From Candidatus Daviesbacteria bacterium RIFCSPLOWO2_01_FULL_39_23 (GTDB lineage Bacteria; Patescibacteriota; Microgenomatia; Daviesbacterales; UBA10151): 64,000 bases of DNA. A program made the position numbers and the translations under genes. Positions 6,426 to 40,094 of the stretch are shown here, piece by piece (position 1 is the first letter of the stretch; every line of letters starts with the position of its first letter). The stretch spans positions 165,449 to 229,448 of the forward strand of contig MFDN01000001.1 of the NCBI GenBank assembly GCA_001776935.1, written 5' to 3'. Below the pieces are notes generated by a model. It ran no database searches. It was given only the letters and a program-made list of their open reading frames with translations, and had not been told where the DNA came from.

Positions 6426-6430
6426 TTTAA

Positions 6431-10743: not shown

Positions 10744-10744
10744 T

Positions 10745-11401: not shown

Positions 11402-11402
11402 C

Positions 11403-21509: not shown

Positions 21510-22421
21510 GTGATTATTTATAGATATCTTATATTTCTTTTGTATGTATTAAATCACCCTTTCGCTAAAGGTCACAAATTAAGACTTTTTACAAAAATGA
21601 TTTGGTGGAAGATTAACAGAAGGTTTTTTAAATTACCCTGTATCGTGGAGTTGGTACACAATATTAAGATAATCTGCTATCCGAACGATTCTCTTTATAG
21701 TACCTTGATTGTTTATTTAATACTTCCTGAATATGGAGAAATGAAGTTTCTATTGGAAATTTTAAATAAGGATGACAATTTTATAGATATTGGAGCTAAT
21801 ATGGGCATTTATTCTTTATTGGCATCCTCAAAAATCGAGAAGGGAAGAATTTTTTCATTCGAGCCTTCTCCCAAGATTCTACCTCAGCTCTATGAAAATA
21901 TTGCCTTAAATAATAAAAAAAATTGCATTAGAGTAATAGAAAAAGCAGTATCCGGAAAAGAGGGATACATTAATTTTGATGTGAGTGATAGTCCGGATTA
22001 TAACCATATTGTTTATCCGAAAGAAGCTGAAGTTTCTTTCGCAGGTGATTCGGTCTTGCGTGTAGGAACTATTACTTTGGATAAATTTATTTCCGGCAAA
22101 AACATTAAAAATATTAAGCTGATAAAAATAGATGTTGAAGGGGCGGAACTCCTGGTTTTAAAAGGCTTACAGAAAACGCTTGAGGAGAAAAAGGTTGCTG
22201 CCTTAATTGTTGAGATAAGCAAATGGACAATTAGCCGGTTTGGCACGACAGTTGAAGAGATAGTTTATTTTCTTCGTAAATACGGGTTTGATATCTATAT
22301 GTTCGATAAGAATTTTAATCTAATTGAATTGTCATCAGGCAAAAACCAAGGTTGGAATATAATTGCCATACATAAGAGCAGGAATGATATTATTAAAAGG
22401 TTTAATAGGAATACTAAATGA
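21510..22421 (+). CDS. FkbM-family methyltransferase.
   Basis: FIDIGANMGIYSL (motif I) and IKLIKIDVEGAELLVLKG (the FkbM signature). The true start may be an internal Met. Confidence 0.7.
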   Translation: MIIYRYLIFLLYVLNHPFAKGHKLRLFTKMIWWKINRRFFKLPCIVELVHNIKIICYPNDSLYSTLIVYLILPEYGEMKFLLEILNKDDNFIDIGANMGIYSLLASSKIEKGRIFSFEPSPKILPQLYENIALNNKKNCIRVIEKAVSGKEGYINFDVSDSPDYNHIVYPKEAEVSFAGDSVLRVGTITLDKFISGKNIKNIKLIKIDVEGAELLVLKGLQKTLEEKKVAALIVEISKWTISRFGTTVEEIVYFLRKYGFDIYMFDKNFNLIELSSGKNQGWNIIAIHKSRNDIIKRFNRNTK

Positions 22422-24496
22422 AAAAACTGTTTTTATGCTACTTTGTTTTTCTGTTTAGCCTGCTATCGATTTTCTCAGCGGGAGTCATTGATTCAATTGA
22501 TGGGTTTCAATATCTAGTAGTTGCCAGAAGCATCTATTACAAAGGCGCACCGACTGCCCCTCCGTATGAATATTCTGAAAGGAAAAATATTCATATGTCA
22601 GTAGTAACAGGTAAGGACGGTAAAACTTACAGTTTAACTGGTCTGGGTTTTTCTCTGGCTTATCTTCCGGCAGTAGCTATAACAGATATTGTTTACAAAA
22701 TTTACGGCATTGATCCATCCGTGCATTTCCCTTTAGAAAATGACTGGCTAATATTTTTAACGGCTGGTTTTACCAATGCATTTTTCGGAGCTCTCTTAGG
22801 AATAATTTTATTTGCATATTTCTTGACATTGGGACTTAGTAAAAAACAGGCAATTTTGATGAGTATTATCTCAATAATTGCCACTAATTTATTTGTATAT
22901 ACCAAACATTCAATGGCTCATATGATGTTTGTTGCATTTTTAATGTTGTCTTTTTTATTGATCAAGTTTTATTCAATCAAAGGGAAGTGGTGGCTGATGT
23001 CTGCTTCGGGCTTATCTTTCGGTATACTTATGATTACTTATAACCCTACTTTTATTCTTGCAATTCCGCCATTGTTTTTATATTACATATTGCTGATTAA
23101 GCATCACTGGAATAAAGAATCTTTAAATTTGATACTTAAGGACATCTCGGTATTTTTTATCGGTTTATTTCCTTTTATATTAATATATAACTGGTTTGAA
23201 AGTTTAAGAACAGTTCAGCAAACTACAAATTTAGCTTTAATAGGTACAAGATATTTAGTTTATAAAGTGCCGTTGTCGGTTTTTTTTGAGGGAATTTATG
23301 GTCAATTATTAAGTCCCGGCAGAAGTATATTCATTTATTCTCCTGTACTGTTAATGATTATATTTTTCTGGCATAAGATACGAAAAAATGTTTATCCTGA
23401 GCTTTTCGCTTTTACTTTTTATTCTATAATTCTGGTAGCTTTTTATTCAAAAGCCTACACAATTGGAAGCCCTGATCAGGGAATTGCCGCCCTGTGGCAC
23501 GGGGAGTCGAGTTGGGGACCCAGATACCTGACTCCTGTGATACCTTTGGGCTTATTAGTAATAGCAGGTACATATAGATTTTTCTCAAAAAAAGTTAGAT
23601 ATTTTATATTCTATCCTTTAGTAGTAATTGGGATTTTTATAGAAATACTTGGAATATTAATGCCTTATCAGACTAAGTATTTTAATTTACAACGCAAATT
23701 TTACGTTAATAGTACCGAATACGGAGCTGCTCTTTATAGTGATCTTCTGCCCCGATACACCCCGATTCTTAATATGTCAAAAAATGTAGTAAATCTAGCC
23801 AAAAATTTTCCTAACACTTATGATCACGGAAAACATAATGTTAAATTTTATGATGGTATAGATTTTCCTTTTAACGTTGGACAGGAAAGATGGAGAGCAA
23901 TCGAGGGCAAAGGATATATTTCCTTTGATAACAACCAAAACGACTTTGTAGAGGAGTTAAGCTTTGGACTTATTAATCATCCTATAGCCGAATCCTCATC
24001 ATCTGCAAAACTGCAATTTGTATTAAACGATGTGAATCTTCTTGAAACTCCTCTTGAGTTGGGCATAACCGAGAGAAAAATAATTAAAATACCCCTTAGG
24101 AAAAATTTGGTGCAGCCAGAAGATAACAAGTTGGAAATTATAGTTAACTATGAAGACCCTGAGGTGCTTACTAAAACAAAACAGATTTTAGGGTTGCAAT
24201 CTTTTGATATTAACAGTCAGAGACAAAATCTGGAAAGTATTGATGTTCCTTATGTATCAGCACTCGGGCCTAAAATTGCCGGTGTGACCTATCAAAATTG
24301 GGGTGGAACAAACACAGATCCCTGGAAAGCCTGGGATATTCATACTCAGGTGTTTGAAAGATTGCCGGATTTTTGGTGGATAAGAAACTTATATTATTGG
24401 GATATACCAAAGGTGTGGATTGTGATTCCATTTATTTTAAATCTGGCTATATTTATCCTTGCCGCAATTAAATTGAAAAAGGAGGTAAGTCGTTGA
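22418..24496 (+). CDS. Polytopic membrane protein with a C-terminal extracytoplasmic domain, GT-C-like putative glycosyltransferase.
   Basis: 692 aa. About 12 TM helices in the first 440 aa are followed by a soluble domain of about 230 aa and a terminal TM helix. The architecture resembles GT-C enzymes, but I see no diagnostic motif. Confidence 0.45.
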   Translation: MKKLFLCYFVFLFSLLSIFSAGVIDSIDGFQYLVVARSIYYKGAPTAPPYEYSERKNIHMSVVTGKDGKTYSLTGLGFSLAYLPAVAITDIVYKIYGIDPSVHFPLENDWLIFLTAGFTNAFFGALLGIILFAYFLTLGLSKKQAILMSIISIIATNLFVYTKHSMAHMMFVAFLMLSFLLIKFYSIKGKWWLMSASGLSFGILMITYNPTFILAIPPLFLYYILLIKHHWNKESLNLILKDISVFFIGLFPFILIYNWFESLRTVQQTTNLALIGTRYLVYKVPLSVFFEGIYGQLLSPGRSIFIYSPVLLMIIFFWHKIRKNVYPELFAFTFYSIILVAFYSKAYTIGSPDQGIAALWHGESSWGPRYLTPVIPLGLLVIAGTYRFFSKKVRYFIFYPLVVIGIFIEILGILMPYQTKYFNLQRKFYVNSTEYGAALYSDLLPRYTPILNMSKNVVNLAKNFPNTYDHGKHNVKFYDGIDFPFNVGQERWRAIEGKGYISFDNNQNDFVEELSFGLINHPIAESSSSAKLQFVLNDVNLLETPLELGITERKIIKIPLRKNLVQPEDNKLEIIVNYEDPEVLTKTKQILGLQSFDINSQRQNLESIDVPYVSALGPKIAGVTYQNWGGTNTDPWKAWDIHTQVFERLPDFWWIRNLYYWDIPKVWIVIPFILNLAIFILAAIKLKKEVSR

Positions 24497-24534
24497 TAAA
24501 AGTTCTAAAAGACTATACAATGAATCTATAAAAT

Positions 24535-25854
24535 ATGATGAGAAGATCCGTTGGGGAAAAAATAGTATATGTGGGAATGTCAGCGGATTTTATACATCAT
24601 GGGCATATAAATATTATCTCGACAGCAAGAAAACTGGGAAAAGTGGTTGTCGGGCTTTTAACCGATGAGGCGATCGCAAGCTATAAAAGAGTTCCCATTC
24701 TGACTTTTGAGCAAAGAAAACAGATTATTGAGAATTTAGCCGGTGTTGATAAGGTTATTCCACAAAAAACCCTTGATTATGTCGAGAATCTGAAGAAAGT
24801 GAAACCTGATTTTGTAGTCCACGGAGATGATTGGAAAACAGGAGTGCAGCGGGAAACAAGAGAAAGAGTAATAAGAGTTTTAAAGGAATGGGGAGGTAAA
24901 TTGGTTGAGCCACGTTATACTTCAGGAATTTCTTCTACACAGCTTATTAATAGTTCAATTAGAGAAGGGGTTAGTCCATCTTATCGGATAAGAGAATTCC
25001 GTAGAATGCTCGAACTTAAGCCAATTGTCAGAATCATGGAAGCGCATAACGGATTAACTGGGCTTATAATAGAAAAGACTAATGTTCAAAGAAGAGGACG
25101 GCTGGTGACATTTGACGGTATGTGGGAGAGCAGCTTAACGGATTCTGCTTCAAAAGGAAAACCAGATACATCAGCTGTTGATGTAACGTCCAGACTGCAG
25201 ACAATAGAACAGATTTTAGAAGTAACGACAAAACCGCTTGTGGTGGATGGAGATAACGGAGGGGTGCCGGAGCACTTTGTTTTTACAGTTAAATCATTAG
25301 AGAGGCTGGGGGTATCAGCTGTTGTTATTGAAGATAAAATTGGGATTAAAAGAAATTCCCTTTTTGGAACTGATGTTGACCAGACCCAGGATTCAATAGA
25401 GGCTTTTTGTGAAAAAATTAACAGAGGTAAAAAAGCACAGGTCGAAACTGATTTTATGATTATAGCCCGTATTGAAAGTCTGATTTTAAAACAGGGGATA
25501 GCTGATGCTTTAAAAAGAGCGAAGAATTACATTAAAGCTGGAGCTGATGGGATATTAATACACAGCAAAGAAAAAACGCCGGATGAAATTTTTGAATTCT
25601 GCAAGGAATATCAGAAATTTGAGTATAAGGTGCCTCTTACTGTAGTTCCCTCAACATTCAGCAGTGTGAGAGAAGAGGAGTTTGAAAAAGCAGGTGTGAG
25701 GATGGTAATTTATGCAAATCAGCTTTTACGGAGTGCATATCCTGCCATGCAAAATACTGCAGAGCTGATATTAAAGAATGGGCGTGCTCAGGAGGCGGAT
25801 GAGTTGTGCTTGCCGATAGGGGAGGTTATAAAACTAATCCCTGATTCTCAATGA
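24535..25854 (+). CDS. Bifunctional cytidylyltransferase / phosphoenolpyruvate phosphomutase (Fom1-like CyTase-PepM fusion).
   Basis: The N-terminal HxGH nucleotidyltransferase domain ([10 protein letters not shown], TagD/GCT-like) is fused to an isocitrate-lyase-superfamily domain ([12 protein letters not shown]) that contains [12 protein letters not shown]. That matches EDKX5NS, the PepM-specific motif. Confidence 0.85.
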
Positions 25855-26954
25855 TTAATTCCGAAGAATTTACCACTTGCTTAATTAAACATAATTTAGG
25901 ACTTGTTATTGAGGTTCCTTGTTCTTACCTGAAAGATATTCTTAATTACCTGAATCAAACAAAAAGGCTTGAAGTTATTAATCCGGTAAATGAGGCGCTG
26001 GTAATGGGAATTGCTTCCGGATATTATTTATCAACGGGAAAAATTCCCATTGTGGCCTTACAGAACTCAGGATTTATGAATACCCTGAATGCTTTAACAT
26101 CTTTAAATCAGCTGTATCAGATCCCTGTTTTTTACCTGATTACCTGGAGAGGGGAGCTGGGCCACGATGCGCCCGAACACGACATTACAGGGCTAAAAAT
26201 GGAAGAATACTTAAAAACTTTTGACCTGCCTTATGAAATTGTCAGTGAGTCAAAATATCAAAACCAAATTAGTAAACTTGCAGATATAGCAATAAAAACT
26301 AAAAAACCGGTTGCTTTAGTTATTAGAAAAGGTTCATTTGAAGCTTTCCCTTCTCTTTTAAAACCAGAGGAAAATTACTTTTCCAGATATGAAGCTATAA
26401 AACTGATTAAAGAAAGCTCGGGCGGGGCGCTTTGCATCTCATCTACAGGTTTTCCTTCAAGGGACTCATTTTCAGTTTTAGATTCACCGGATTTTTATAT
26501 GGTTGGTTCGATGGGGCATACATTTTCTATTGCACTGGGGATAGCTCCTAATACAAAAAAGAAAATAGTTGTGTTGGATGGTGAGGGATCGTCATTGATG
26601 CATCTGGGGGGTCTTGCTTCTTTTAATCCCGATAGGATTAAAAACATTAATTACTTTATCTTAGATAATGAAGGGTACGAGAGTACAGGGGGCCAACCAA
26701 CGGTTTCGCCTAATGTTAATTTTAAATTGCTTGCAAAATCGTTTAACTTTAAAAACATTTATGAGGTTTCAAAAGAAGCTGGATTAAAAGAGGTATTAAG
26801 GAAGTTAAAGACAGCAAAAGAATCATCATTTATCCACGTAAAGATAGTAAACAGTAGTCAGAAAGTATCCGAGAAAAGGGTTTCTGATAAATACACCTGT
26901 CCTCAAATTAAAGAGAGGTTTATGGAGAACTTCAAACGTGTTAAAAATCATTAA
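25851..26954 (+). CDS. Phosphonopyruvate decarboxylase (ThDP-dependent, fused alpha/beta form).
   Basis: 367 aa with a ThDP-binding GDG-like segment ([20 protein letters not shown]). It resembles the Ppd/sulfopyruvate decarboxylase (ComDE) family, overlaps the PepM fusion by 4 nt, and is followed by an iron alcohol dehydrogenase. Confidence 0.8.
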
Positions 26955-28074
26955 CCCCCAAAGAAAATCAAGTTACCAATTACCCACAAAAGTTTATTTT
27001 GGAAGAGGAGCTATCGATCTGTTCCCTGAAATAATTCAAGAAAGAAAATTTAAAAAATTACTTTTGGTGGCAGGGGAACATTTTAAAAAATCAAATAAAT
27101 TCAATGAAATTGTGCGGAAAATTAAAGATGTGAAAATTTATGAAAATGTAGTAAAAAGATGTGATTTTATAAATATTAATAAGCTTATCAAATTTTGCAG
27201 AGAGGATTCGTTTGATGCAATTGCAGCTATTGGAGGAGGAACGGTGTTGGATGCTGTAAAATGTGCTTCGGCCGTATCCGTCGATGGCTGTTTGGTAGAA
27301 GATTATTTGATTTCCAAGAAAAAAGAAGTTTCCAGGAAGGGTTTATCTTTTTTAGCAATTCCTACTACTGCCGGTACGGGCAGCGAGGTAACGCCATGGG
27401 CAACTGTTTGGGATAAAGGCAAGAAGTATTCTCTGGATTCGAAATATATTTTTCCCGAGGTAGCAATAGTTGACCCTGCTTTAACAGATTCGCTTTCAAA
27501 AAACCTTACGTCTGAACCTGGGATAGATGCTCTGTGTCAGGCGATCGAAGCTTATTGGAACATCCACAACAATGCTATCTCGGATAAATACGCCTTAGAA
27601 TCTATCAAAATAATTTTAATGAATCTGGAGCAGGCTGTTAATAACCCTGAGCCCAAAGTAAGAGATGCAATGGCTTGGGGCTCGCTTTTAGCAGGATTAG
27701 CTTTTTCTAATACAAGGACAACAATATGTCACGCTGTTTCTTATCCGATGACTGCTCATTGGAGTATTCCTCACGGACAAGCGACTTCAATTACTTTGCC
27801 GTTGTTTATTAAATATGTATTTCCCGTATTGTCAAAGGGAAAGCTGTCTAAAATTTTAAGCGCGATGAAGGTAAAAAATATTATAGAAGCATCACAAATA
27901 ATAAATGACCTTATGATTGGAATTGGATTAAAAACAAAATTTTCCGATTTGGGTATTACAAAAAAAGATGTAGATTTAATAGTTGAGGAAGGGTTCGATC
28001 CAAGCCGGTCAAAAAATACTCCAAAAGTTCCTTCCCCCTTGGAGCTAGAAGAAATGCTTTATAGTATTTTATAA
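26938..28074 (+). CDS. Group-III iron-containing alcohol dehydrogenase, predicted phosphonoacetaldehyde reductase (PhpC/FomC-like).
   Basis: Fe-ADH signatures: AIGGGTVLDAVK, AIPTTAGTGSEVT, and a His cluster (CHAVSYPMTAHWSIPHGQA). Its position right after PepM and Ppd mirrors 2-hydroxyethylphosphonate pathways. Confidence 0.7.
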   Translation: MLKIINPQRKSSYQLPTKVYFGRGAIDLFPEIIQERKFKKLLLVAGEHFKKSNKFNEIVRKIKDVKIYENVVKRCDFININKLIKFCREDSFDAIAAIGGGTVLDAVKCASAVSVDGCLVEDYLISKKKEVSRKGLSFLAIPTTAGTGSEVTPWATVWDKGKKYSLDSKYIFPEVAIVDPALTDSLSKNLTSEPGIDALCQAIEAYWNIHNNAISDKYALESIKIILMNLEQAVNNPEPKVRDAMAWGSLLAGLAFSNTRTTICHAVSYPMTAHWSIPHGQATSITLPLFIKYVFPVLSKGKLSKILSAMKVKNIIEASQIINDLMIGIGLKTKFSDLGITKKDVDLIVEEGFDPSRSKNTPKVPSPLELEEMLYSIL

Positions 28075-28088
28075 ATCTGTTTGCTAGA

Positions 28089-29468
28089 ATGATGTCTGGT
28101 ATGAAGCCTAATATGTGGAAAGAGACTTGCTTATTCTGTAAGGAAATAGTGCATCTATTTTTATATTGGATTGCCCATAGGATGCCTCTCAGTAATAGGA
28201 TTTGGATTTTCGGATCCTGGTTTGGTGAAACTTATAATGACAACAGCAAATATATATTTGAATACGTCAACGCAAATCTTCCAGATATTACCGCTGTATG
28301 GCTAAGCAGAAAAAAAGACATTGTTTTAAACGTGAGAAGGAGAGGATATAAGGCTTATTGTTTTTACAGCTTATCGGGAATTTGGTATGCCTTGCGGGCA
28401 GGTGTGGCAATATTTTGTGTTGGCTACACTGCAGATTTGCCGGGATTTTGCATATCAAATTCCAAAAAGTTAATTCAGTTATGGCATGGGATTGGTACAA
28501 AGAAAATAGGTGTAATGAATACAAAGCAAAAAGACACCAATAAAAAAATATATCCTTATATCCAAAATCCTTATCTAACGAAAATAATTCTACGCTTATC
28601 AAAAATATTATTTAACTCAACTGCAACCAAGATAAACCATTTAGTTTATAAATTAGAACTTTTTCAAAACTACACCTTTTTCCCTACGCTGTCTCCGAGT
28701 ACTAAAAAAATGGCAGTTGAATCATTTAATCTTCCGAATGAGAAGGTTATTATTACCGGGTCACCGAGGAACGACGGTCTTTTTGGCAATAAATTTATAA
28801 TCACCGGCAAAATTTCTAAAATCATCGAGGATGTCCACAATAGCAATGGTTTTATTGGTTTTTATATGCCTACTCATAGACAAGAAGGCGGTGAGGAGAT
28901 GCTGAAGGTAATTAATGATAATTTAAGATCATGTCAAAAAATGCTTGAAGAGAAAAATATTTATCTGTTTGTAAAATTGCATCAATTTCATCAATCTGAA
29001 TCAAGCTCTGAGCATTTTAAAAACATAATCTATGTCAGTAGTCAGGATTTAAATGATGACATATATCCATTCTTACCAAAGACTGATTTTTTGATAACTG
29101 ATTATTCAACCATTTATATTGATTATCTTTTAGTCAACAAGCCGGTTGTTTTTCTAAATTACGATCTTGAGAGATACACAGCTTTAGACAGAGAACTTTT
29201 TTTTCCTTATGAAGAGGTAACCCCCGGACCAAAAGTGTCTTCTTGGGAGCAGCTTATTCCAACACTGAGTAAACAACTTAAAAAAGATAACTATAAAAAG
29301 CAACGCCAAAAAATGAAAGAATTTTTTCATACATACCCTGATGGTAACAGTAGTAGGCGTATTGCAGAGAAGATTTACAATTCGTTTATAACCGCTTCGC
29401 CAAAACCACGTACTCTTAGTGCGTGGATGAAGGCCCGCTTCGCAAGCGAAGCGAGGCGAGCGAAGTAA
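28089..29468 (+). CDS. TagF/TagB-family CDP-alcohol (glycerophosphate-type) transferase-like protein.
   Basis: YMPTHRQEGG matches the TagF-family YxPTxR motif. Overall length and a C-terminal GT-B-like half (ITDYSTIYIDYLLVNKPVVFLNYDLERY) fit PF04464. The last 15 or so codons run into a GC-rich hairpin element. Confidence 0.75.
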   Translation: MMSGMKPNMWKETCLFCKEIVHLFLYWIAHRMPLSNRIWIFGSWFGETYNDNSKYIFEYVNANLPDITAVWLSRKKDIVLNVRRRGYKAYCFYSLSGIWYALRAGVAIFCVGYTADLPGFCISNSKKLIQLWHGIGTKKIGVMNTKQKDTNKKIYPYIQNPYLTKIILRLSKILFNSTATKINHLVYKLELFQNYTFFPTLSPSTKKMAVESFNLPNEKVIITGSPRNDGLFGNKFIITGKISKIIEDVHNSNGFIGFYMPTHRQEGGEEMLKVINDNLRSCQKMLEEKNIYLFVKLHQFHQSESSSEHFKNIIYVSSQDLNDDIYPFLPKTDFLITDYSTIYIDYLLVNKPVVFLNYDLERYTALDRELFFPYEEVTPGPKVSSWEQLIPTLSKQLKKDNYKKQRQKMKEFFHTYPDGNSSRRIAEKIYNSFITASPKPRTLSAWMKARFASEARRAK

Positions 29469-29556: not shown

Positions 29557-29557
29557 A

Positions 29558-30568
29558 TTAATTAGGCAGATTTAATTTATGAAAACAAATTATATCACCA
29601 TCAGGTAAACCTTGAGAATATTTTTTTATTTCAATTAGGTCTAACTTCTTATTCTTTACTTTTAAATACTGTTTATAACCTAATTTTTGCATAAACATAA
29701 ATGCTTTTTGAAGGTTTTTAAAGTTACCAAACCTTTCTAAGACAGGAGAATGTTCATAAAAAACTATCGGTCGGCTTTTCTTAATAGTTTCCCTGCCTCC
29801 TTTTAGGACCTTTAAGTCAGCTCCTTCCGCATCAATCTTGATAAATTCTATTTTTTTAATTTTATTTTCTTTTACATACCTATCAATGGTGGAAGCGTTA
29901 ACAATCTTCTCACTTATTTTATAGGTAAGGTTTGCTACTATTGTTGACAGGCCGTCATTACGAAGTCCATTGTCTTGCACGGCACGATTTATATTAAGTG
30001 TTACCTTTTCGGTTGCTGGATTATCCTGTAAAGCCATTTCCTCCACGATAATATTGCTGAAACTATTTAGTTTGATATTTTTTTTCAGTTGGCTTACAAC
30101 TTTTTCGTCAGGATCAAAGGAATAAACTTTTCCCAGGGGAACACATTTTTTTGCAAATGGTAAACTAAGTAAACCTGCATTTGCGCCAACATCAAAAATT
30201 ACCGAATCTTTATTTATTAATCCTTTAAGTTTTGTGCATAACCAACCGTTAAATATTCCGTTTTTAACAATTGCATTATCCAAAACAGAATTTGGCCGAA
30301 TCCAATATTTAATATTATATAAACCAGTAAAGACATATGGGGGTTTATGGTCATAAACCTTTGCTAATTTAACTTTTTTACCCTCACCAGATTCTTTTAG
30401 AATTTTGATCAATTTTTTTTCATCAATGCCATTGGGTTTTATTATGCTTCTCATCATTTTTAAATAATGATTGAGGCCAACTTCGTCAGGTTCTCTTTCT
30501 AAAGCCGTTAAGTAGCATCTGCGGATTATCTCTTTATTTTTTTTAGTAAAACCAAAGATTTTGAACAT
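29558..30568 (-). CDS. FkbM-family methyltransferase (second copy).
   Basis: VIFDVGANAGLLSL (motif I) and IEFIKIDAEGADLKVLKGG (the FkbM signature). 336 aa. Confidence 0.7.
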   Translation of the reverse strand: MFKIFGFTKKNKEIIRRCYLTALEREPDEVGLNHYLKMMRSIIKPNGIDEKKLIKILKESGEGKKVKLAKVYDHKPPYVFTGLYNIKYWIRPNSVLDNAIVKNGIFNGWLCTKLKGLINKDSVIFDVGANAGLLSLPFAKKCVPLGKVYSFDPDEKVVSQLKKNIKLNSFSNIIVEEMALQDNPATEKVTLNINRAVQDNGLRNDGLSTIVANLTYKISEKIVNASTIDRYVKENKIKKIEFIKIDAEGADLKVLKGGRETIKKSRPIVFYEHSPVLERFGNFKNLQKAFMFMQKLGYKQYLKVKNKKLDLIEIKKYSQGLPDGDIICFHKLNLPN

Positions 30569-30691: not shown

Positions 30692-32641
30692 GTGAAATAT
30701 ATACTTTTGATAATGTTTCTAACTGATTTCCTGCTTTTTATTGTCTTTCAATTGTTGATTGTTTATCCGTTGGGCAAGACTATCTTAAATTTTATGGGAA
30801 TGAAGTTTTGGTTAATTCCCAGCCTTGTTTTTGGGGTAAATATTGGTATTGTTGTTTTAACAATAGCTGCTTTAATTTTAGGCTATACAAATAATTATTA
30901 TTTACTGCCATTAATAGCTGTAATCTCCTTAATCCTATTTTTTCTTCAAATAAGAAATATAAAATTTTCAAAGTTTAATATAAGGGGAATCCTAAAATTG
31001 CCGGATTTAGTTGTTATATCAACAATCCTGTTATGTGTTTTAATACAGTCATTCATAGTGTTTCCTAATGGGGTGAGTACTGGTGGAATCTTACGGGTTA
31101 AAAATGTTTTTACAGAGGATGGTATGTGGCATATTGCAATAATAAATAACCTTAAAAAATCTATTCCTCCCTCAAACCCTATTTTTGCAGGGGAAAAATT
31201 AACAAATTATAACTATTTTTCAGATATCTATATTGCTGTAATACAAAAATTTACACATATCAAGACTCTAACTTTGTATTTCAAATTAATAGGCCCTTTC
31301 TTGGCCCTTCTTTGTGCCGTGTCACTTTATTTTATTTTGAAGGTGCTTACAGGGAATCAAATAATAGCCGGAATGGGAGTTTTACTGATTACATTGGCCA
31401 GTACATATTACTATATATTTGGAATTTTTAAGCCCGGTTTGAATATTAACCCAAGTACTTTTTTTGGGAATGATTATGTCAGCAGGATGGTGAATTACCA
31501 ACTATCGTTCTCGTATTTAATTATTACAAGTTTTTTGTACCTTTTGCTTCACAGAAAAGATTCGTTTAGATTTATCATAATTGCATCGTTTCTTATTAGT
31601 AGCGGGATTGGTTTTAAGTCGTACGGGACAATCCTTATTATTCCGGCTTTATATATAGTCGGGTTTTATAATATATTCAGAAAAAAATTTGACTTAATTA
31701 AGATTGCGTTTTTAAGCAGTATTTTTATAGCAGTTTTAGTTTATCTATTTTTAGGGAGCGGTCAGGCTATAAAAACTGTATTCACCTTTGACCCGTTTTG
31801 GTTGATAGGGAATATATTCACTGACCCATTAAGATTCAGTTCTGCTGGCTGGGCAGCAAGCAGGAGTTACTATTTAGATAGTAACAATTATCCAGGTATT
31901 GCGTACCTTTACTTTAAAGGTTTAGTAATTTTTCTTTTTACTCAGTTCGGATTAAAAATTTTGGGGTTTTTATATATCTTGAAGATTAAAGAGAATAAGG
32001 AGAGAGATGTAATATTATTAATATCCATTATCGCATTAACCGGTATTATTATGCCGCTTATTTTTACTCAAGGGGGGGTAAAGTGGAATACGATACAATT
32101 TATCTGGTATTCAAGCTTTGGTTTAGGGATACTTTCAGTCTTATTGATTTCAGGTTTTCAAAAGAAAATAGGATTAAAGCTAATTTTGATTATACTGTTG
32201 TCTGTATGGGTTTCTTATCTACCGGGGGTATTACACTATAGTAAATTTTATTTATCAGATGCAGGTAACTTAACAACATATAATTTTCAAGGTACGCAGG
32301 AATCTTATAAAGCTGCAAGGTTTTTATCTGGTCAGCCTGATGGCGTATTACTCTTAGACTCAAAATACTCACAAACCCCTTTTATTATGGCAATTTCGGA
32401 AAAGAATGCTTACTTTGCCGATGAAAGCATATTATCAAATCTGTTTTTGGATTGGTATACCAGGGACCAAAGAACGAAACTTTTTTTTGATAATTTTACA
32501 AGCAGCGAGTATAAGGAAAAATTCCTGAAAGAAAACAATATTTCTTATGTCTTTACAGCTAAGGATACTTTAAGGCCAGCAAGATATTTGGATAATATTT
32601 TCAATAATGATGAAGTATGGATATACAGAACAAAGTTTTAA
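30692..32641 (+). CDS. Polytopic membrane protein with a C-terminal soluble domain, GT-C-like putative glycosyltransferase.
   Basis: 649 aa. About 13 TM helices are followed by a soluble tail of about 140 aa. No diagnostic motif is recognised. Confidence 0.4.
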   Translation: MKYILLIMFLTDFLLFIVFQLLIVYPLGKTILNFMGMKFWLIPSLVFGVNIGIVVLTIAALILGYTNNYYLLPLIAVISLILFFLQIRNIKFSKFNIRGILKLPDLVVISTILLCVLIQSFIVFPNGVSTGGILRVKNVFTEDGMWHIAIINNLKKSIPPSNPIFAGEKLTNYNYFSDIYIAVIQKFTHIKTLTLYFKLIGPFLALLCAVSLYFILKVLTGNQIIAGMGVLLITLASTYYYIFGIFKPGLNINPSTFFGNDYVSRMVNYQLSFSYLIITSFLYLLLHRKDSFRFIIIASFLISSGIGFKSYGTILIIPALYIVGFYNIFRKKFDLIKIAFLSSIFIAVLVYLFLGSGQAIKTVFTFDPFWLIGNIFTDPLRFSSAGWAASRSYYLDSNNYPGIAYLYFKGLVIFLFTQFGLKILGFLYILKIKENKERDVILLISIIALTGIIMPLIFTQGGVKWNTIQFIWYSSFGLGILSVLLISGFQKKIGLKLILIILLSVWVSYLPGVLHYSKFYLSDAGNLTTYNFQGTQESYKAARFLSGQPDGVLLLDSKYSQTPFIMAISEKNAYFADESILSNLFLDWYTRDQRTKLFFDNFTSSEYKEKFLKENNISYVFTAKDTLRPARYLDNIFNNDEVWIYRTKF

Positions 32642-33618
32642 ATAAGATAATTATTGATTTTTTCTAGTATCCTGACTATTCTAAGCCCATGAGTGCCGTC
32701 GTTTAAGGCGGGTTTTTTAGATAAGACTGCCTGAACAAATGAATCAATAACTTTGTATAGTGGTTCTGATGGTTCAATTTTAGGAGTTAATACTTTACCG
32801 GATTTATATTTTAACAGGTTAATATCGACTTTGTTTATTTCTATACTTGAATGGAATATTTGCAGCTGATTTTTCAAATTATTATCATCCCAAAGGAGCA
32901 TTTTTTTACTTCCGGCTATTGTTATATTGCGGATTTTTACTGGAGAAAGCCAGCTTAAATATATATTTGCGACAAAGCCACTTTTATATCTTAGAATGAC
33001 GGTTCCGCTTTCTGTATATTTTGGTTTATGAAATATATGCGATGAACCTGTAACGAAAAACTCCTCAGGCTGTTCTTTATTTAATAAATAATCAAGTATC
33101 GAGAGCTCGTGGGGAGCAAGATCCATAAATACGTTTGTTGATTTGTCTATTTTTCCTAAGTTTGCCCTTATAGAGTGATAATAATAAAGTTTCCCAAGAA
33201 GGTTGCCATTAATCAAGGATTTAATTTTCTCAAGAGGTTTTGAGAAAATATAGGGATGATCTACGCAAAGAATAACCCCCTTATCTGTAGCTAACTTAAT
33301 TAACTTTTGGGCATCTTTAACTGTGGCAGTCATGGGTTTTTCGATAAGGATATTTTTTCCGGCCAGAAGGCATTGCAGAGAAATATTAAAGTGTTCTAAT
33401 ATAGGGACTGCGATAACGACGCAGGAAATGTCTTTATTATTCAGAACTTCCTTAATATCCTGTGTTAGGGAAATATTTGGATAACTCGTTTTAGCTTTTT
33501 TTAATTGTTTCAAAGACAAATCACAAATGTATTCAACTTTTACTTTGGGATGTAATAATAAATTTCTAAGCAGGATCGGGCCCCAGTAACCGTAACCAAT
33601 CAGTGCAATTTTAAGCAT
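32638..33618 (-). CDS. Gfo/Idh/MocA oxidoreductase, WbpB-like nucleotide-sugar 3-dehydrogenase.
   Basis: LKIALIGYGYWGPILLRNL N-terminus. It is paired with, and translationally coupled to, the downstream DegT aminotransferase, which is the WbpB/WbpE arrangement. Confidence 0.7.
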   Translation of the reverse strand: MLKIALIGYGYWGPILLRNLLLHPKVKVEYICDLSLKQLKKAKTSYPNISLTQDIKEVLNNKDISCVVIAVPILEHFNISLQCLLAGKNILIEKPMTATVKDAQKLIKLATDKGVILCVDHPYIFSKPLEKIKSLINGNLLGKLYYYHSIRANLGKIDKSTNVFMDLAPHELSILDYLLNKEQPEEFFVTGSSHIFHKPKYTESGTVILRYKSGFVANIYLSWLSPVKIRNITIAGSKKMLLWDDNNLKNQLQIFHSSIEINKVDINLLKYKSGKVLTPKIEPSEPLYKVIDSFVQAVLSKKPALNDGTHGLRIVRILEKINNYLI

Positions 33619-34738
33619 TTTTTATGTTATTTGCTATTTTATTTAACACTGTGACAACGTGATGTATTTGTTTTTCAGTCATTTCAGGATAAATAGGTAT
33701 TGAGAAAATATTCTTGCAAATATTTTCTGCCACAGGTAAATCTTTCTTACGGTATTCTAGATTAGAATAAGCCTCTTGTAAATGCAGAGGGATGGGATAA
33801 TATATTGCCGAGCTTATTCCGTTGCTGGCCAGCATGCTTATTATCAGATTGCGTTTTTTGTGTGCCAGCGTATATGTATAATATACATGTTTACTTTTCG
33901 GAAATGTTTGAGGGATGGTGTAAATACTTGAAAGATTGCTGTTGTAATAGCGGGCAATTTGCCGTCTATTTTCATTCCAGATATCAAGATATTTTAATTT
34001 GATACGTAGTATTGCTGCTTGCAGGTTGTCCAGACGTCCATTGTAGCCTACCAGCTTATGGCTATATTTAGAAGTTCTACCATGGTCTCTTAATAAAAAA
34101 ATAGTTTTTGCGATTTTAGAGCTATTGGTTACAATTGCTCCACCATCACCAAAGCAGCCAAGGTTTTTCGACGGGTAAAAACTAAAACAGGCAATATCAC
34201 CCCAGAAACCTGTTTTTTTGTTTTTGTAAGTAGCTCCATGAGCTTGCGCAGCGTCTTCAATAATTTTTAATTTGTATTTTTTTGCAATTTCGCCTATCTC
34301 ATCCATGTCAGTAATTTGCCCATATAAATGAACCACAATTATTGCTTTTGTTTTTTTGGTAATTTTTTTAGCAATTTGATTTTTATCAAGGTTGTAAGTT
34401 ATGGGATTGGTATCAATAAATACAGGAATTGCGCCGAGGTTTGCAATTGCTGCTGCAGAAGCGGTAAAGGTAAGAGTAGGACATATTACCTGATCCCCGG
34501 TTTTTATCCCTATGGCTTTTAATGCCAGATCTAAGGCTGTACTGCCGGAAGAGAGACCGCAACAATATTTAGCACCACAATATCTGGCAAATTCTCTTTC
34601 AAACATGCGCAGGTCCTCACCTAAAATAAAATCACCGTTTTTAATAATACGTTTGATTACCGGGTCAATCTCTTTCTTAAGCCGTTGATACTGCAGGGGC
34701 AAATCTATTAGAGGAATTTTGTTCATATGGCTATACAT
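33611..34738 (-). CDS. DegT/DnrJ/EryC1-family PLP-dependent aminotransferase, WbpE-like 3-aminotransferase.
   Basis: DegT N-terminus (IPLIDLPLQYQRLKKEIDPVIKRIIKNGDFILGEDLRMFEREFARYCGAKYCCGLSSGSTALDLAL) and 375 aa. Confidence 0.85.
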   Translation of the reverse strand: MYSHMNKIPLIDLPLQYQRLKKEIDPVIKRIIKNGDFILGEDLRMFEREFARYCGAKYCCGLSSGSTALDLALKAIGIKTGDQVICPTLTFTASAAAIANLGAIPVFIDTNPITYNLDKNQIAKKITKKTKAIIVVHLYGQITDMDEIGEIAKKYKLKIIEDAAQAHGATYKNKKTGFWGDIACFSFYPSKNLGCFGDGGAIVTNSSKIAKTIFLLRDHGRTSKYSHKLVGYNGRLDNLQAAILRIKLKYLDIWNENRRQIARYYNSNLSSIYTIPQTFPKSKHVYYTYTLAHKKRNLIISMLASNGISSAIYYPIPLHLQEAYSNLEYRKKDLPVAENICKNIFSIPIYPEMTEKQIHHVVTVLNKIANNIKNA

Positions 34739-34753
34739 TATGCGAGTTATGGG

Positions 34754-36019
34754 TTATTTAGTCAATAATTTTGCTATTTTCTCCCCTAAATCAGCAGCAT
34801 AATTTGTTCCCCTGTCCCAGGGGTATACCATGTCTAGATTGGCGAGGTATATATTTTTAAGAGGGGTTTGGAATTTGGGGATATGTCTGGAGTGTTTTAG
34901 TGCGACAATGGGTTGTGCGAAAGAGCTTACGAATTTATGTACACTGATTAAATTTTCTTGAAAGTTTGGGTTTAATTTCAATAAATAATCGTTAAATAAT
35001 TTTAGCAGTTGGTTGCCTGTCATTTTTAAATAGGGGTGATCTTTGGGTAGATAATTACCGATATAAACTATATGCTGATTATTGTAATGGGTTGGATTTA
35101 TAAAATTTGTGTGTTCGACAAGGACCAGAAAAGGAAATTCTTTTCGGGCAATGTTTAACCAGTAGGTATTTTTTAGAAAAGATTTTTTTAATACTAATAT
35201 TAAATTTAACGCATCAAGATGTTGGATTATACCTATTTTTTCAACGTACTTTTGAGGGAGATTTGGTGCAATACCGGTAAAAACTGGTGAAGGCGAAGTA
35301 CAGATAATCTTATCGAACTTAAATATATTTTTGGGTGTTTGCAAAGAACAACTGTTTTTAGATGAGTTAATTGATTTTACTTCGGATTTAAAATTGATTT
35401 CTCCTCCCAGCTTTTCTATTTCTCTGACTATTTCATCTGTAAAATTTTTAAAACCTTTTTGAGGATAAGCTAATGATGCAGTTCTTTTTTTAATTCTTGC
35501 CCAGAACCAGGATAATGAGATTGTATTTTTGTAGCTTCCGAACTTTCCGTAAAATAGAGGTTCCCATATCAGCTTTGTTGCTTTTTTACCCATCCATTGC
35601 TCTATCCATTTTAAAGCCAATTTGTTTTCCAGCCTTTTATAGTTATTAAGTAGTTTAAAATAAGCCAGTGAAAGGCCCACTCTAATTCGGGAAAGTAACG
35701 GAAGGCCGGAGAATAATATAAGCGATATGCCGTTATCAAGCGGTAAGATTTTATCGTTTATCAGTATATCGGTGTGCGGTTTTTTAACAACAACTTTGTA
35801 ATTAAGTTCTTTTGCTAGGGCAAGTATTTTATCATCATTTGTAAACCAGTGATGATAGCTTTTTTCCAGAGCCCAATCCCAACTTTTCTTTTTAAATCCA
35901 CTGGCTAGTCCGCCTGCAGACATTTCTTTTTCAAAAATATATACGCTATGTCCTTTTTGCAGTAATCGCAACCCGGCCACGAGACCTGTAAAGCCGGCAC
36001 CGATTATGGCAATTTTCAT
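34754..36019 (-). CDS. FAD/NAD(P)-binding oxidoreductase, UDP-galactopyranose-mutase / amine-oxidase-like.
   Basis: N-terminal dinucleotide motif MKIAIIGAGFTGLVAGLRL...E. A GGLASG...KSYHHWFTND segment resembles the Glf GGN...HIFHTN region. 421 aa. Confidence 0.45.
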   Translation of the reverse strand: MKIAIIGAGFTGLVAGLRLLQKGHSVYIFEKEMSAGGLASGFKKKSWDWALEKSYHHWFTNDDKILALAKELNYKVVVKKPHTDILINDKILPLDNGISLILFSGLPLLSRIRVGLSLAYFKLLNNYKRLENKLALKWIEQWMGKKATKLIWEPLFYGKFGSYKNTISLSWFWARIKKRTASLAYPQKGFKNFTDEIVREIEKLGGEINFKSEVKSINSSKNSCSLQTPKNIFKFDKIICTSPSPVFTGIAPNLPQKYVEKIGIIQHLDALNLILVLKKSFLKNTYWLNIARKEFPFLVLVEHTNFINPTHYNNQHIVYIGNYLPKDHPYLKMTGNQLLKLFNDYLLKLNPNFQENLISVHKFVSSFAQPIVALKHSRHIPKFQTPLKNIYLANLDMVYPWDRGTNYAADLGEKIAKLLTK

Positions 36020-36104: not shown

Positions 36105-37040
36105 ATGAAAAATTCTCAAGGCATAAGTTTAATCATTCATACTAAAAATGAAGAGAGAAATATTAAAGATTGTATTTTATCTGCAAAAAGGATAGTTGAT
36201 GAGATTATTGTTGCCGACATGGCTAGTACAGATAAGACTCTAAAGATAGCAAAATCTCTTGGTGCTTTAATACTTGAACTGCCTGCTGTTGGATTTGTTG
36301 ATAATTTTAGAAATCTTGCCATCGCTAAAGCAAAATTTGAGTGGATACTGAATTTTGATGCAGACGAGAGAATTACCAGGGAATTACAAAAAAAGTTTCT
36401 TAAAATTGTTAAAGAAGACAAGTTTGATGTGGTGCTTGCTCCCAGAAAATGCATAAGGTTTAATAAATGGATCAGATATGGAGGTCATTGGCCGGATTCA
36501 CAATTAATTCTATTTAAAAAAAGCGCTATGAGGTGGCCGGATAAGATTAATCAGGCCCATATTTTGCCTATACTTAAGGGCCGGATATTGACTCTTGAGC
36601 CAAAAGAGGAAAATGCATTTATTCATTATAATATTGAGAATCTTAAGCACCTTCTTTCGAAAATTGTTTGGTACACTACTTTGGAAGGGAGCGGGGATTA
36701 TTTTAAGAAAAATAAATTTACTCCTGAAAACTTAATTAATTATTACAAGGGCGAGTTTAGGTACCGTTATATTGAAGAGAAGGGATACAAGGACGGGATA
36801 AGGGGATTTATTATAGCCAAATTCAGGGAATATTATAAATTTTTGGAATTTGTGAACTGGTGGGAAAGGAAGGGTTATCCTGAAGTATTTAATCAGAACG
36901 AGCTTTTAGATGCTATCTTAGAAAAAGAAGAGTTTGAGAGGATAGAGGCTTTCGGAGTTTCTAAGATCTATAAATTATGGAAGTTTTACCACAAGATGAA
37001 AGATAAGGCTTTGGATGTCATCAAACCTTTTCGCTATTAA
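36105..37040 (+). CDS. GT2-family glycosyltransferase.
   Basis: ISLIIHTKNEERNIKDCILSAK...VADMASTDKT is GT2 GT-A fold, with a DAD (DxD-like) segment (NFDADERI). Confidence 0.7.
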   Translation: MKNSQGISLIIHTKNEERNIKDCILSAKRIVDEIIVADMASTDKTLKIAKSLGALILELPAVGFVDNFRNLAIAKAKFEWILNFDADERITRELQKKFLKIVKEDKFDVVLAPRKCIRFNKWIRYGGHWPDSQLILFKKSAMRWPDKINQAHILPILKGRILTLEPKEENAFIHYNIENLKHLLSKIVWYTTLEGSGDYFKKNKFTPENLINYYKGEFRYRYIEEKGYKDGIRGFIIAKFREYYKFLEFVNWWERKGYPEVFNQNELLDAILEKEEFERIEAFGVSKIYKLWKFYHKMKDKALDVIKPFRY

Positions 37041-38680: not shown

Positions 38681-40093
38681 ATGAAAAAGATACCTCAAGT
38701 TTCAATTATAATCGTTAATTATAATGGCAAACACTTCCTGAAAGAGTGTTTAAGCTCGGTTTTTAACATAGACTTTCCTAAAAGCCAGTATGAAATTATT
38801 ATGGTTGATAATGATTCAAAGGATGACTCTGTAGATTACGTGCTCAAGAATTTTTCTGAGGTAAAGGTAGTACAAAGTATTAGTAATTTAGGATTTGCGG
38901 AAGGATGTAATTTAGGAGTTAAAAATGCTTTAGGCAATTTTGTTGTTTTTTTGAACACAGATACAAAAGTAGAAAGGAATTGGTTAAAAGCATTGGTTAA
39001 AAGCATAAAATCAGATAAGGGCATTGGAGCTGTTAATTCAAAACTGCTTCTGTATAATCCATTCTTCGAGTTATTGATTCATTCAGATATTTTTATGAGA
39101 TCTGATTTTTCTGACAGTGTTAATTTCCAGTCAGTAGGTGTCTTGGTTGAGAGTGTAATTATTGACGATGATAATTTGCAACCTTTGGTTAGGTATGAAA
39201 AGGGATTTTATGAAAATGAATATGGAATTATTCCTGTCAGATGGACAAAAGGTGATGCGAGTATTCTTATTCCGGTAGACCCCCGTAAGAATACCATAGG
39301 AATGACTGTTACTATCAGATCGGGAAAATCAATATCAGGGCTGGAAACACAAATCGCTTTAAAGCTCGGAGAGAAAGATTTGATAGTGGATAAATTAAAA
39401 TCATACGAAGTAAAACAATACAAAATTTCACTGGAAACAAAAGAGCTAAGGAAATATCTGTTGTATGCTGTACAAAATTCAGGTGTTGTTGTCTTTAAGA
39501 ATGGGTATGGGCGTGACCGTGGAGCAGTTGTACGGGGAACAACTCAATTTTACGAAATAGACAATCCCTTTTTTAGCCAAAAAGCGGAAATCCATGCTTT
39601 TACAGGTGCAAGTGTGATTATCAGAAAAGAAATTTTTGAAAAGTTAGGGGGATTTGATGATAAATACTTTATGTATTATGAGGATGTTGATTTAGGTTTA
39701 AGGATGCAGAGGCAAGGGTATAAAATTGTCTATGAACCAGAATCAGTGGTTTATCATATTCATAGCGGTTCAAGTAAAGAATGGTCGCGGTTTTTTACCT
39801 ACCATGTTGAAAAAAACCATCTGGCGACCCTTGTTAAACATTTTCCTGTTAATACTATACTTACAGGTTTTACAAGATATATTGGTATGCTGATTATATC
39901 AAGCTTAAAAATGATTAAATGGAGGGCAAGTGAGCATTGGGAGCTGTACGACCAATGGAGGGAAAAAGTGGAAATTAGAATATCTGTACTAATGTGGATA
40001 TTCCAGCATTTTATTTACTTTGCAATAAAAAGGATGCAAATTAATATGAGCCAGAAAAAGAGCATGGCGGAGATAATCAAAAAATTATATTAA
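38681..40093 (+). CDS. GT2-family glycosyltransferase with an extended central and C-terminal region.
   Basis: VSIIIVNYNGKHFLKECLSSV...MVDNDSKDDS is GT2, with a DTD (DxD) segment in FLNTDTKV. 470 aa, carrying an insertion of about 150 aa. Confidence 0.75.
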   Translation: MKKIPQVSIIIVNYNGKHFLKECLSSVFNIDFPKSQYEIIMVDNDSKDDSVDYVLKNFSEVKVVQSISNLGFAEGCNLGVKNALGNFVVFLNTDTKVERNWLKALVKSIKSDKGIGAVNSKLLLYNPFFELLIHSDIFMRSDFSDSVNFQSVGVLVESVIIDDDNLQPLVRYEKGFYENEYGIIPVRWTKGDASILIPVDPRKNTIGMTVTIRSGKSISGLETQIALKLGEKDLIVDKLKSYEVKQYKISLETKELRKYLLYAVQNSGVVVFKNGYGRDRGAVVRGTTQFYEIDNPFFSQKAEIHAFTGASVIIRKEIFEKLGGFDDKYFMYYEDVDLGLRMQRQGYKIVYEPESVVYHIHSGSSKEWSRFFTYHVEKNHLATLVKHFPVNTILTGFTRYIGMLIISSLKMIKWRASEHWELYDQWREKVEIRISVLMWIFQHFIYFAIKRMQINMSQKKSMAEIIKKLY

Positions 40094-40094
40094 A

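Follow-up and report, generated by a model that had tools for sequence, protein, structure and literature searches.

What does a TagF-like phosphotransferase transfer when the genes directly upstream of it are those of phosphonate synthesis? This question is raised by a four-gene cassette on contig MFDN01000001.1 of Candidatus Daviesbacteria bacterium RIFCSPLOWO2_01_FULL_39_23, which we analysed within a stretch of 64,000 nt (hereafter the window; all coordinates are positions within it). The cassette lies on the + strand at 24535-29468 and consists of overlapping or nearly abutting genes for a fusion of a cytidylyltransferase and a phosphoenolpyruvate (PEP) mutase (CyTase-PepM), a phosphonopyruvate decarboxylase (Ppd), an alcohol dehydrogenase (ADH), and a PF04464 (TagF-family) protein. 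An earlier sequence-only reading of the same DNA had proposed that the first three make 2-hydroxyethylphosphonate (HEP) and that the fourth uses its cytidine monophosphate (CMP) conjugate, CMP-HEP. We consider it probable that HEP is made and CMP-activated here and then put on an exported surface glycan by the TagF-like enzyme.

Six genes run in the same direction (21510-29468), and the cassette makes up the last four of them. The open reading frames (ORFs) are exactly those described before as four collinear and coupled genes: the ATG of the Ppd gene overlaps the stop of the fusion gene by 4 nt, the ADH gene starts with GTG and overlaps the Ppd gene by 17 nt, and the TagF-like gene follows the ADH gene after a 14-nt gap. 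A promoter and terminator scan of 20300-31000 gave counts at chance expectation and was uninformative on operon structure.

The first gene (24535..25854, + strand) encodes a bifunctional Fom1-type protein of 439 aa, in which a CyTase domain (PF01467, aa 16-138, about nt 24556-24966) precedes a PEP mutase domain (PF13714, aa 155-412, about nt 24997-25845). The fusion protein scored 391.9 bits against the PEP mutase equivalog TIGR02320 and passed its cut-off of 319.55, while models of related lyases and hydrolases stayed far under their own cut-offs. Both the EDKX5NS motif, which serves as the criterion separating Ppm proteins from isocitrate-lyase relatives (PMC6697681), and the HxGH motif (HHGH) are visible in the translation, and the PepM residues E266, D267, K268, N274, and S275 are invariant across 19 homologues. 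Over 137 aa the CyTase domain shares 70% identity with that of Fom1 (PDB 5x3d; E=1.3e-59). The Fom1 architecture that the sequence-only reading had recognized is thus borne out, and its PepM call held in the alignment of catalytic residues that had been named as a check.

The second gene (25851..26954, + strand) encodes a 367-aa thiamine pyrophosphate enzyme with TPP_enzyme_N and TPP_enzyme_C domains. By far its best NCBIfam model is TIGR03297 (277 bits, under the equivalog cut-off of 312.5) and its top PDB match is 9iz3, a 'putative phosphonopyruvate decarboxylase'; together with its position after PepM in other genomes (see below) this supports the earlier Ppd assignment. The third gene (26938..28074, + strand) encodes a 378-aa group-III (Fe/Zn) ADH (PF00465, 132.6 bits; PF25137, 135.5 bits), for which a PhpC/FomC-type phosphonoacetaldehyde reductase had been suggested. 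Its best NCBIfam model is indeed TIGR03405, the Fe-ADH of phosphonate clusters, at 246.5 bits against a cut-off of 423.7, and in PDB comparison it resembles generic Fe-ADHs. Among the metal ligands, D197, H265, and H279 do not vary, and the second ligand of the D-x-x-x-H motif is Q201 here (DALCQ). Glutamine is found at this position in 34 of 55 cassette-linked ADHs and histidine in the other 21. PhpC-type enzymes are highly divergent, and they are reported to depend on Zn, with a weakly bound metal (PMC13576164).

The fourth gene (28089..29468, + strand) encodes a 459-aa TagF-family phosphotransferase, the predicted CMP-HEP:glycan HEP-phosphonyl transferase. Its PF04464 match (185.8 bits; gathering score 22.1) covers profile positions 3-366 of 367, and the YMPTHR, WHG, and KLH motifs are present, in agreement with the YxPTxR motif reported before. 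In an alignment of 24 homologues, W132-H133-G134, P261-T262-x-R264, H298, and D338-Y339-S340 are conserved, with H298, P261, T262, and R264 invariant. H133 falls on TarL residue 300 in the alignment, the position of the H300N mutation in structure 8va1, so the protein has both the catalytic histidine of the family (TagF H444; TarL H300) and the PTxR motif. The AlphaFold model (pLDDT 86.6, pTM 0.85) was compared with the PDB by Foldseek, and the top 20 matches were all TagF, TarL, Bcs3, or Cps3D, ahead of other GT-B-like folds (E 1e-20 to 4e-16; query-normalised TM-score 0.55-0.67). The window enzyme shares with TagF, TarL, TarF, TagB, Bcs3, and Cps3D the PF04464 domain, the two-Rossmann GT-B-like fold, the catalytic His pair, and PTxR, whereas its sequence identity to these enzymes is only 18-22%. 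As a minor feature, a basic C-terminal extension of about 25 residues (aa ~435-459, …ASPKPRTLSAWMKARFASEARRAK) is missing from most homologues. A 96% identical protein (P0001) has a similar length of 455 aa, and the homologues begin at about Met5.

If the fourth gene belongs functionally to the other three, the association should not be peculiar to one genome. An alignment of the fusion protein was scanned against one genome per species and detected more than 590 loci; the counts below refer to the best 80 of them (59-82% identity, one duplicating L001), about 75 of which gave gene neighbourhoods. These 80 loci come from Patescibacteria, DPANN and other archaea, Marinimicrobia, Cloacimonadota, Elusimicrobia, Bacteroidota, Proteobacteria, Firmicutes, and Actinomycetota. 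In 68 of the ~75 loci PepM is followed by Ppd, and 51 of the 54 loci that have at least 1.3 kb of sequence beyond Ppd also carry an Fe-ADH. Clustering of the neighbouring ORFs found no class-V aminotransferase family among the recurrent neighbours. Because of this frequency of the ADH and the missing aminotransferase, the fusion subtype is tied to the HEP branch and not to 2-aminoethylphosphonate (AEP). Fom1 CyTase converts HEP and cytidine triphosphate (CTP) to CMP-HEP, and CyTase-PepM fusions are common, 23.6% of Ppm proteins carrying PF01467 (PMC6697681); HEP neighbourhoods make up 8.5% of ppm neighbourhoods.

The same clustering gave three kinds of CMP-releasing transferase near the cassette: PF04464 in 17 loci, LicD in 13, and CDP-alcohol phosphatidyltransferase in 13 (of ~75; CDP, cytidine diphosphate). 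PF04464 and CDP-OH_P_transf never co-occur among these loci, and PF04464 and LicD do so in three Marinimicrobia loci only. The order PepM>Ppd>ADH>PF04464 without an intervening gene was found in ten genome loci (L009, L013, L024, L026, L029, L032, L037, L057, L062, and L063) from Patescibacteria, Ignavibacteria, Marinimicrobia, WOR-3, Rikenellaceae, Cloacimonadota, Elusimicrobia, and Chitinophaga, and also in the metagenome loci L092, L093, L116, L134, L167, and L169. Ten divergent neighbour proteins were checked and all ten pass the PF04464 gathering score.

The main argument for the donor comes from the relatives of the TagF-like enzyme (percentages are identities to it). The nearest named relatives are in Candidatus Daviesbacteria GCA_000992645.1 (75%) and other Patescibacteria. 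PepM-Ppd-ADH stands immediately upstream in L001 (79%), L004 (75%), L092/L093 (69%), and L172 (62%). Further out, the gene that would supply the donor changes: L173 (58%) has a stand-alone PF01467 protein of 150 aa directly upstream and L089 (59%) one of 137 aa close by, L007 (51%) has an NTP_transferase with a short-chain dehydrogenase, L091 (38%) an NTP_transferase, and L090 (36%) an NTP_transf_3 with a glycerol-3-phosphate dehydrogenase, which is the classical CDP-glycerol supply. The ABC-2/ABC pair, a GT2 glycosyltransferase of ~450-470 aa, a GT1 glycosyltransferase of ~400-520 aa, and large membrane proteins are kept throughout. P0008 (61%) has no ADH directly upstream on a short contig that ends just beyond, and was left unclassified. 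Since the neighbouring gene supplies the activated alcohol and is swapped between relatives, position predicts the donor, and on this ground we assign the window enzyme to CMP-HEP. Across 90 full-length members of the subfamily from genomes and metagenomes, the context was HEP in 14, stand-alone CyTase in 22, stand-alone CyTase plus NTP-transferase in four, NTP-transferase in 16, NTP-transferase plus CDP-OH in one, CDP-OH in seven, and unknown in 26. HEP use is, by these sequence comparisons, a recurrent re-pairing inside an ordinary TagF-like family and not a separate lineage.

The association is also present where the product has been purified. HEP-containing exopolysaccharides were obtained from Stackebrandtia nassauensis NRRL B-16338 and Glycomyces sp. 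NRRL B-16210, as cited in PMC8942020 and PMC13576164 from Yu et al. (2014, J Bacteriol 196:1768), and both clusters are catalogued as 'phosphonoglycans' reference clusters (PMC7375171). The S. nassauensis cluster (L175, CP001778) reads IspD, PF04464 (551 aa), PF04464 (569 aa), CyTase-PepM, Ppd, Fe-ADH, and the Glycomyces cluster (L176) reads PF04464 (571 aa), CyTase-PepM, Ppd, Fe-ADH, followed by LicD-like proteins and a GT2-PF04464 fusion. As in the window, the CyTase-PepM (62-63% identical), Ppd, and Fe-ADH genes stand directly beside PF04464 in a glycan-assembly context, with glycosyltransferases near both clusters and an ABC ATPase near that of S. nassauensis. There are also differences: PF04464 is upstream of the trio in the two actinomycetes but after the ADH in the window; it belongs to a remote subfamily (551-571 aa, 'LMHG' instead of 'LWHG') whose kinship BLASTP barely detects; Ppd and ADH are only ~28-30% identical to those of the window; and the actinomycete loci carry IspD, CDP-OH_P_transf, and LicD-like genes that the window set does not have. 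Another locus, L047 (Ca. Stackebrandtia faecavium), also has a PF04464 ORF next to pepM but was dropped as evidence since this ORF overlaps an IspD ORF call in high-GC DNA; L175 and L176 were used. Partial hydrolysis of the actinomycete polymers reportedly gave HEP mono-esters of hexose and glycerol, a result that would agree with HEP-phosphonyl being placed on a hydroxyl group by a TagF-type enzyme. The polymers are also said to contain O-methylated galactose, to which the two FkbM methyltransferases flanking the window cassette would be a parallel.

With the identities of the four proteins, their catalytic motifs, and their recurrent linkage established by sequence, fold, or synteny, a pathway can be proposed. 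The PepM domain would convert PEP to phosphonopyruvate, Ppd would decarboxylate it to phosphonoacetaldehyde, and the PhpC-type ADH would reduce the latter to HEP. The CyTase domain, whose likely substrate is HEP given its 70% identity to Fom1 and the ADH in 51/54 cassettes, would then join HEP and CTP to CMP-HEP, the phosphonate analogue of CDP-glycerol. With H133 as the base, the TagF-like enzyme may take the HEP-phosphonyl group of CMP-HEP and place it on a hydroxyl of a lipid-linked glycan, presumably built by the neighbouring GT2/GT1 enzymes, with release of CMP, and the Wzm/Wzt-type ABC transporter at 37021-38566 would export the HEP-glycan. The predicted product is a HEP-esterified surface glycopolymer (phosphonoglycan), possibly O-methylated as well by the flanking FkbM enzymes. 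The donor and acceptor assigned to the TagF-like enzyme are inferred, as is the number of HEP units that it would attach. The logic is shared with the AEP tailoring by PntC and LicD (Rice et al., 2019, PMC6697681), in which a phosphonate also goes via a CMP conjugate to a surface glycan; there AEP is made with a transaminase, activated by a PF12804 cytidylyltransferase, and transferred by LicD, whereas here HEP would be made with an ADH, activated by PF01467, and transferred by PF04464. Teichoic-acid systems have in common with the window the ABC-transporter export and, as predicted here, CMP as the leaving group; they differ in that the electrophile of TagF-type enzymes is phosphoryl and that of the window enzyme would be a phosphonyl (C-P) centre. 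Of the canonical teichoic-acid set, TagD, TagO, TagA, and TagB are not among the window genes.

How far can the genes not found in the window decide the fate of HEP? Nearly all ORFs of at least 110 aa were scanned with Pfam, and several of them have no Pfam match. In these scans no B12-radical-SAM (Fom3-like; SAM, S-adenosylmethionine) protein was matched, a class-V AEP transaminase was never a best match, and no HTH+cupin (helix-turn-helix plus cupin, HEPD/MpnS-like) protein of the sort found near other cassettes was matched. A cupin epoxidase or HEPD-type enzyme was likewise not among the matches, in a scan that used no dedicated models and left some ORFs without a match. The claim of the sequence-only reading that Fom3/Fom4-type enzymes and an AEP transaminase are missing therefore stands for the Fom3-like methyltransferase and the transaminase, and for the epoxidase it goes only as far as those Pfam models reach. 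Neither a TagD/TarI/LicC-type or IspD cytidylyltransferase nor a stand-alone PF01467 was detected, the only other cytidylyltransferase of the window being the CMP-nonulosonate-type PF02348; TagO (PF00953) and TagA (WecG family) were not among the matches, which held a TagGH-like ABC pair and a PglC-type Bac_transf only. Fom1 of Streptomyces wedmorensis (Cho et al., 2017, cited in PMC6697681) has the same two-domain architecture and serves fosfomycin synthesis, whereas the window offers a glycan-assembly context without a Fom3-like match, and in such a context CMP-HEP is expected to be a transfer donor and not a transient carrier. That CMP is attached only transiently, as in fosfomycin, and that the cassette makes a diffusible small-molecule phosphonate is in our view highly improbable. 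The Fom1 architecture and the 70% identical CyTase domain speak for it, but it would have to explain the missing Fom3-like and HTH+cupin matches, in scans that made no specific search for a FomD-type hydrolase, and a cassette embedded among glycosyltransferases and a glycan ABC exporter, and the same trio gives polymer-bound HEP in S. nassauensis and Glycomyces (PMC8942020, PMC13576164).

Several observations weigh against our assignment of CMP-HEP to the TagF-like enzyme. Both Ppd and ADH score below their NCBIfam equivalog cut-offs. Relatives as close as 58-59% pair with TagD-like genes, from which it follows that the fold itself does not dictate HEP. On a rough, identity-based neighbour-joining tree, which we used only qualitatively, the HEP-linked TagF-like proteins are polyphyletic, falling into at least six separate lineages, and we rejected their monophyly. 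A HEP-specific residue signature was sought and rejected, as none was found that all HEP-linked members share: the window clade reads WHGIG[TV]KK at a site where WHGxPLKK is usual among the relatives, and the other HEP-linked lineages do not have the window-clade form. At position 225 a serine replaces the usual Tyr/Phe before a conserved Pro-Arg (G-x-P-R); it occurs in four HEP-linked lineages (window clade, L027, L041, and L116) and in one of 50 sequences of known non-HEP context. We take S225 as a weak hint at a candidate donor-specificity position and not as a signature, and do not count it as evidence. The IspD gene beside the S. nassauensis PF04464 genes implies that at least one of these may use a conventional CDP-alditol. 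Full-text literature searches for a link between PF04464 or TagF and a phosphonate donor returned nothing relevant beyond Rice et al. (2019), and the search for a CDP-glycerol supply covered the 64-kb window of the genome alone.

Of these points, the TagD-like pairings, the want of a HEP-specific motif, and the 64-kb search range also speak for another possibility, an ordinary CDP-glycerol or CDP-alditol activity of the TagF-like enzyme with a donor that comes from elsewhere in the genome, HEP or CMP-HEP going to a different enzyme, such as a large unannotated membrane protein, or to another fate. It is true that relatives at 36-59% adjoin TagD-like, NTP-transferase, or glycerol-3-phosphate dehydrogenase genes, but in those relatives the donor gene is the immediate neighbour, and this is the very rule by which the window enzyme falls to HEP. 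The examined relatives at 62% or above all have the PepM trio immediately upstream, P0008 (61%) being the exception noted; PF04464 directly follows the ADH in many unrelated phyla; and no CDP-alditol supply gene appeared in the window scans. We therefore regard an ordinary alditol transferase as quite unlikely. A variant of the same HEP chemistry, in which HEP is a building block within the chain and not a decoration of it, is possible though unlikely. The TagF-like enzyme might polymerise HEP through its free 2-hydroxyl to poly(ethylene phosphonate), comparable to poly(glycerol phosphate), or might alternate with the conserved ~310-aa GT2 to give a [sugar-O-CH2CH2-P(O)(O-)-O]n backbone, comparable to the products of TagF-like capsule polymerases with glycerol phosphate. 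HEP, unlike AEP, retains an extendable primary hydroxyl; the nearest structural relatives (TagF, TarL, Bcs3, and Cps3D) are polymerases; a GT2 of 301-321 aa recurrently adjoins the TagF subfamily whatever the donor; and export depends on an ABC transporter as in teichoic acids and group-2 capsules. On the other hand, polymerases cannot be told by sequence from primases and limited transferases (TagB, TarF), and TarF is in fact the best NCBIfam match, with a weak 92 bits; the reported mono-esters of hexose and glycerol mentioned above fit a decoration at least as well. A true 'phosphono-teichoic acid', with a phosphonate ester as the repeating inter-unit bond (poly(2-oxyethylphosphonate) or [glycosyl-O-CH2CH2-P(O)(O-)-O]n), appears unlikely. 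If it did exist, it would be resistant to phosphodiesterases on the C-P side and could be a direct origin of the HEP esters known from high-molecular-weight organic matter of the sea and of groundwater.

The reading that the TagF-like enzyme decorates a glycan with HEP offers a candidate for the enzyme that installs HEP esters, none having been identified in the literature searched. The comparative data put PF04464 proteins forward as the most frequent partner of the CMP-HEP cassette, next to LicD and CDP-alcohol transferases. The earlier proposal that the window enzyme is a CMP-HEP user gains from the recurrent synteny, the donor swapping, and the presence of PF04464 beside the trio in HEP-phosphonoglycan producers, and the functional assignments of that reading all held at the level of domain, motif, and fold. 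Our full-text searches did not contradict its remark that a TagF-type enzyme dedicated to a phosphonate donor is, as far as known, still to be characterised. Its sense of novelty was too high: PepM, Ppd, ADH, and PF04464 are already associated in phosphonoglycan clusters that have been characterised and catalogued, and CyTase-PepM makes up 23.6% of Ppm proteins, as cited above. Orthologues that are 58-62% identical and paired with either a PepM or a TagD-like gene constitute a natural experiment, a compact one in which donor specificity could be mapped. The source bacterium is uncultured and itself probably ultra-small; the cassette occurs widely among ultra-small Patescibacteria and DPANN archaea, whose surface polymers probably mediate host attachment.

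Some side observations were made on the cassette in other genomes. The fusion protein is 59-82% identical between Patescibacteria, DPANN archaea, Lokiarchaeum, Marinimicrobia, Alteromonadaceae, Clostridium, and Actinomycetota; such identity across distant lineages implies strong constraint and probably extensive horizontal transfer, and by these comparisons Fom1 looks like a recruit from a surface-glycan cassette. Near other cassettes a B12-radical-SAM (Fom3-like) gene was seen in eight loci and an HTH+cupin (HEPD/MpnS-like) gene in five, mostly archaeal. The loci with B12-binding radical-SAM proteins or 460-aa HTH+cupin (HEPD/MpnS/HppE-like) proteins are mostly from Nano-/Woesearchaeota (L015, L020, L022, L051, L067, L069, L072, L073, L077, L083, and L084), which suggests that surface-bound hydroxypropyl-, hydroxymethyl-, or methyl-phosphonate may occur in DPANN archaea. 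L089 (P0012), the closest of the TagF-like relatives without PepM, has a B12-radical-SAM gene adjoining its 137-aa stand-alone cytidylyltransferase. This gene scores 318 bits against the Fom3-like family that was assembled from the neighbours of the cassette, and no PepM was seen within the 8 kb covered. In Marinimicrobia/Neomarinimicrobiota, L024 and L026 have the order fused ABC exporter - LicD - PepM - Ppd - ADH - two tandem PF04464. In L032 the two PF04464 genes also stand in tandem but LicD is missing, and L050 carries LicD behind the ADH and a PF04464 gene upstream. These four loci are candidates for the origin of the HEP esters known from marine high-molecular-weight organic matter. L001/L009 (GCA_964500725.1, CAZCNP010000002.1) is titled 'uncultured Gammaproteobacteria bacterium', and its locus is 79-82% identical to and syntenic with the window and with Daviesbacteria, so the taxonomic label of this record looks doubtful.

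Around the cassette the whole 64-kb window is a glycan island (G+C about 31-39%), and the cassette itself sits inside an ABC-transporter-type glycan locus at 21510-43354. The co-directional run is headed by an FkbM-family methyltransferase gene (21510..22421, + strand; PF05050 89.7 bits, TIGR01444 119.8 bits), the stop of which overlaps by 4 nt the start of a gene for a 692-aa membrane protein (22418..24496, + strand) with a weak PMT (GT-C-like) match (PF02366, 22.1 bits, just below cut-off). Homologues of the latter adjoin the same cassette in L001 (914 bits) and L004 (542 bits). Downstream, a second FkbM-family methyltransferase gene is convergent with the cassette (29558..30568, - strand; PF05050 80.6 bits), and next to it is the gene for a 649-aa protein without a Pfam match (30692..32641, + strand), whose homologues are found directly 3' of the TagF-like gene in relatives (11305-13230 of L001, 882 bits; a 642-aa gene after the TagF-like gene in L174). 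Genes for a GFO/IDH/MocA oxidoreductase, a DegT aminotransferase, and a flavin amine-oxidase-like protein (32638..36019, - strand; assigned by domain families) have an identical order in L001 and are probably an amino-sugar supply set.

The 311-aa GT2 glycosyltransferase is encoded at 36105..37040 (+ strand; PF00535). In L001, L089, L173, and L174 the TagF-like gene has a GT2 gene of 301-321 aa directly after it or close by. The exporter consists of an ABC ATPase (37021-37803, - strand; PF00005) and an ABC-2 permease (37775-38566, - strand; PF01061); its ABC_tran and ABC2_membrane domains agree with the Wzm/Wzt or TagGH type that had been proposed for it. The pair is directly upstream of PepM in L001 and L004 and directly downstream of the TagF-like gene in L007. 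A GT2 (470 aa) and GT1 (510 aa) pair (38681..41627, + strand), with homologous pairs in L001, L004, L007, and L091, provides candidate backbone glycosyltransferases. The locus ends with a 571-aa membrane protein (41639..43354, - strand) that has no Pfam match here and is homologous to DUF6311 proteins of related loci (282-411 bits against L001/L004 genes annotated PF19830).

Two further gene sets of the island were noted in the window. A second glycan system, of Wzx/Wzy type (44172-63915 and 17870-19381), includes several large ORFs without a Pfam match (44172-45836, 51646-53526), a Wzx-type flippase (17870-19381), four PMT_2/GT-C-like membrane proteins (46967-51455, 58485-59942), five GT4 glycosyltransferase genes (53433-55762, 59953-63271), a Wzy_C protein (57081-58484), and the PglC-type Bac_transf priming enzyme (63271-63915). 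The region 2213-13916 holds a complete-looking nonulosonic-acid (legionaminic/pseudaminic-type) pathway with a HisH/HisF-like amidotransferase pair (3454-4961), the PF02348 CMP-sugar synthetase (5721-6425), NeuB (7801-8850), a formyltransferase (8847-9599), a NeuC-type epimerase (9589-10743), a DegT aminotransferase (11813-12916), a PseB/PglF-type dehydratase (12909-13916), and, within the same region, a hexapeptide acetyltransferase and a PIG-L deacetylase. The formyltransferase and the HisH/HisF-like pair suggest an N-formyl or acetimidoyl decoration of the sugar.

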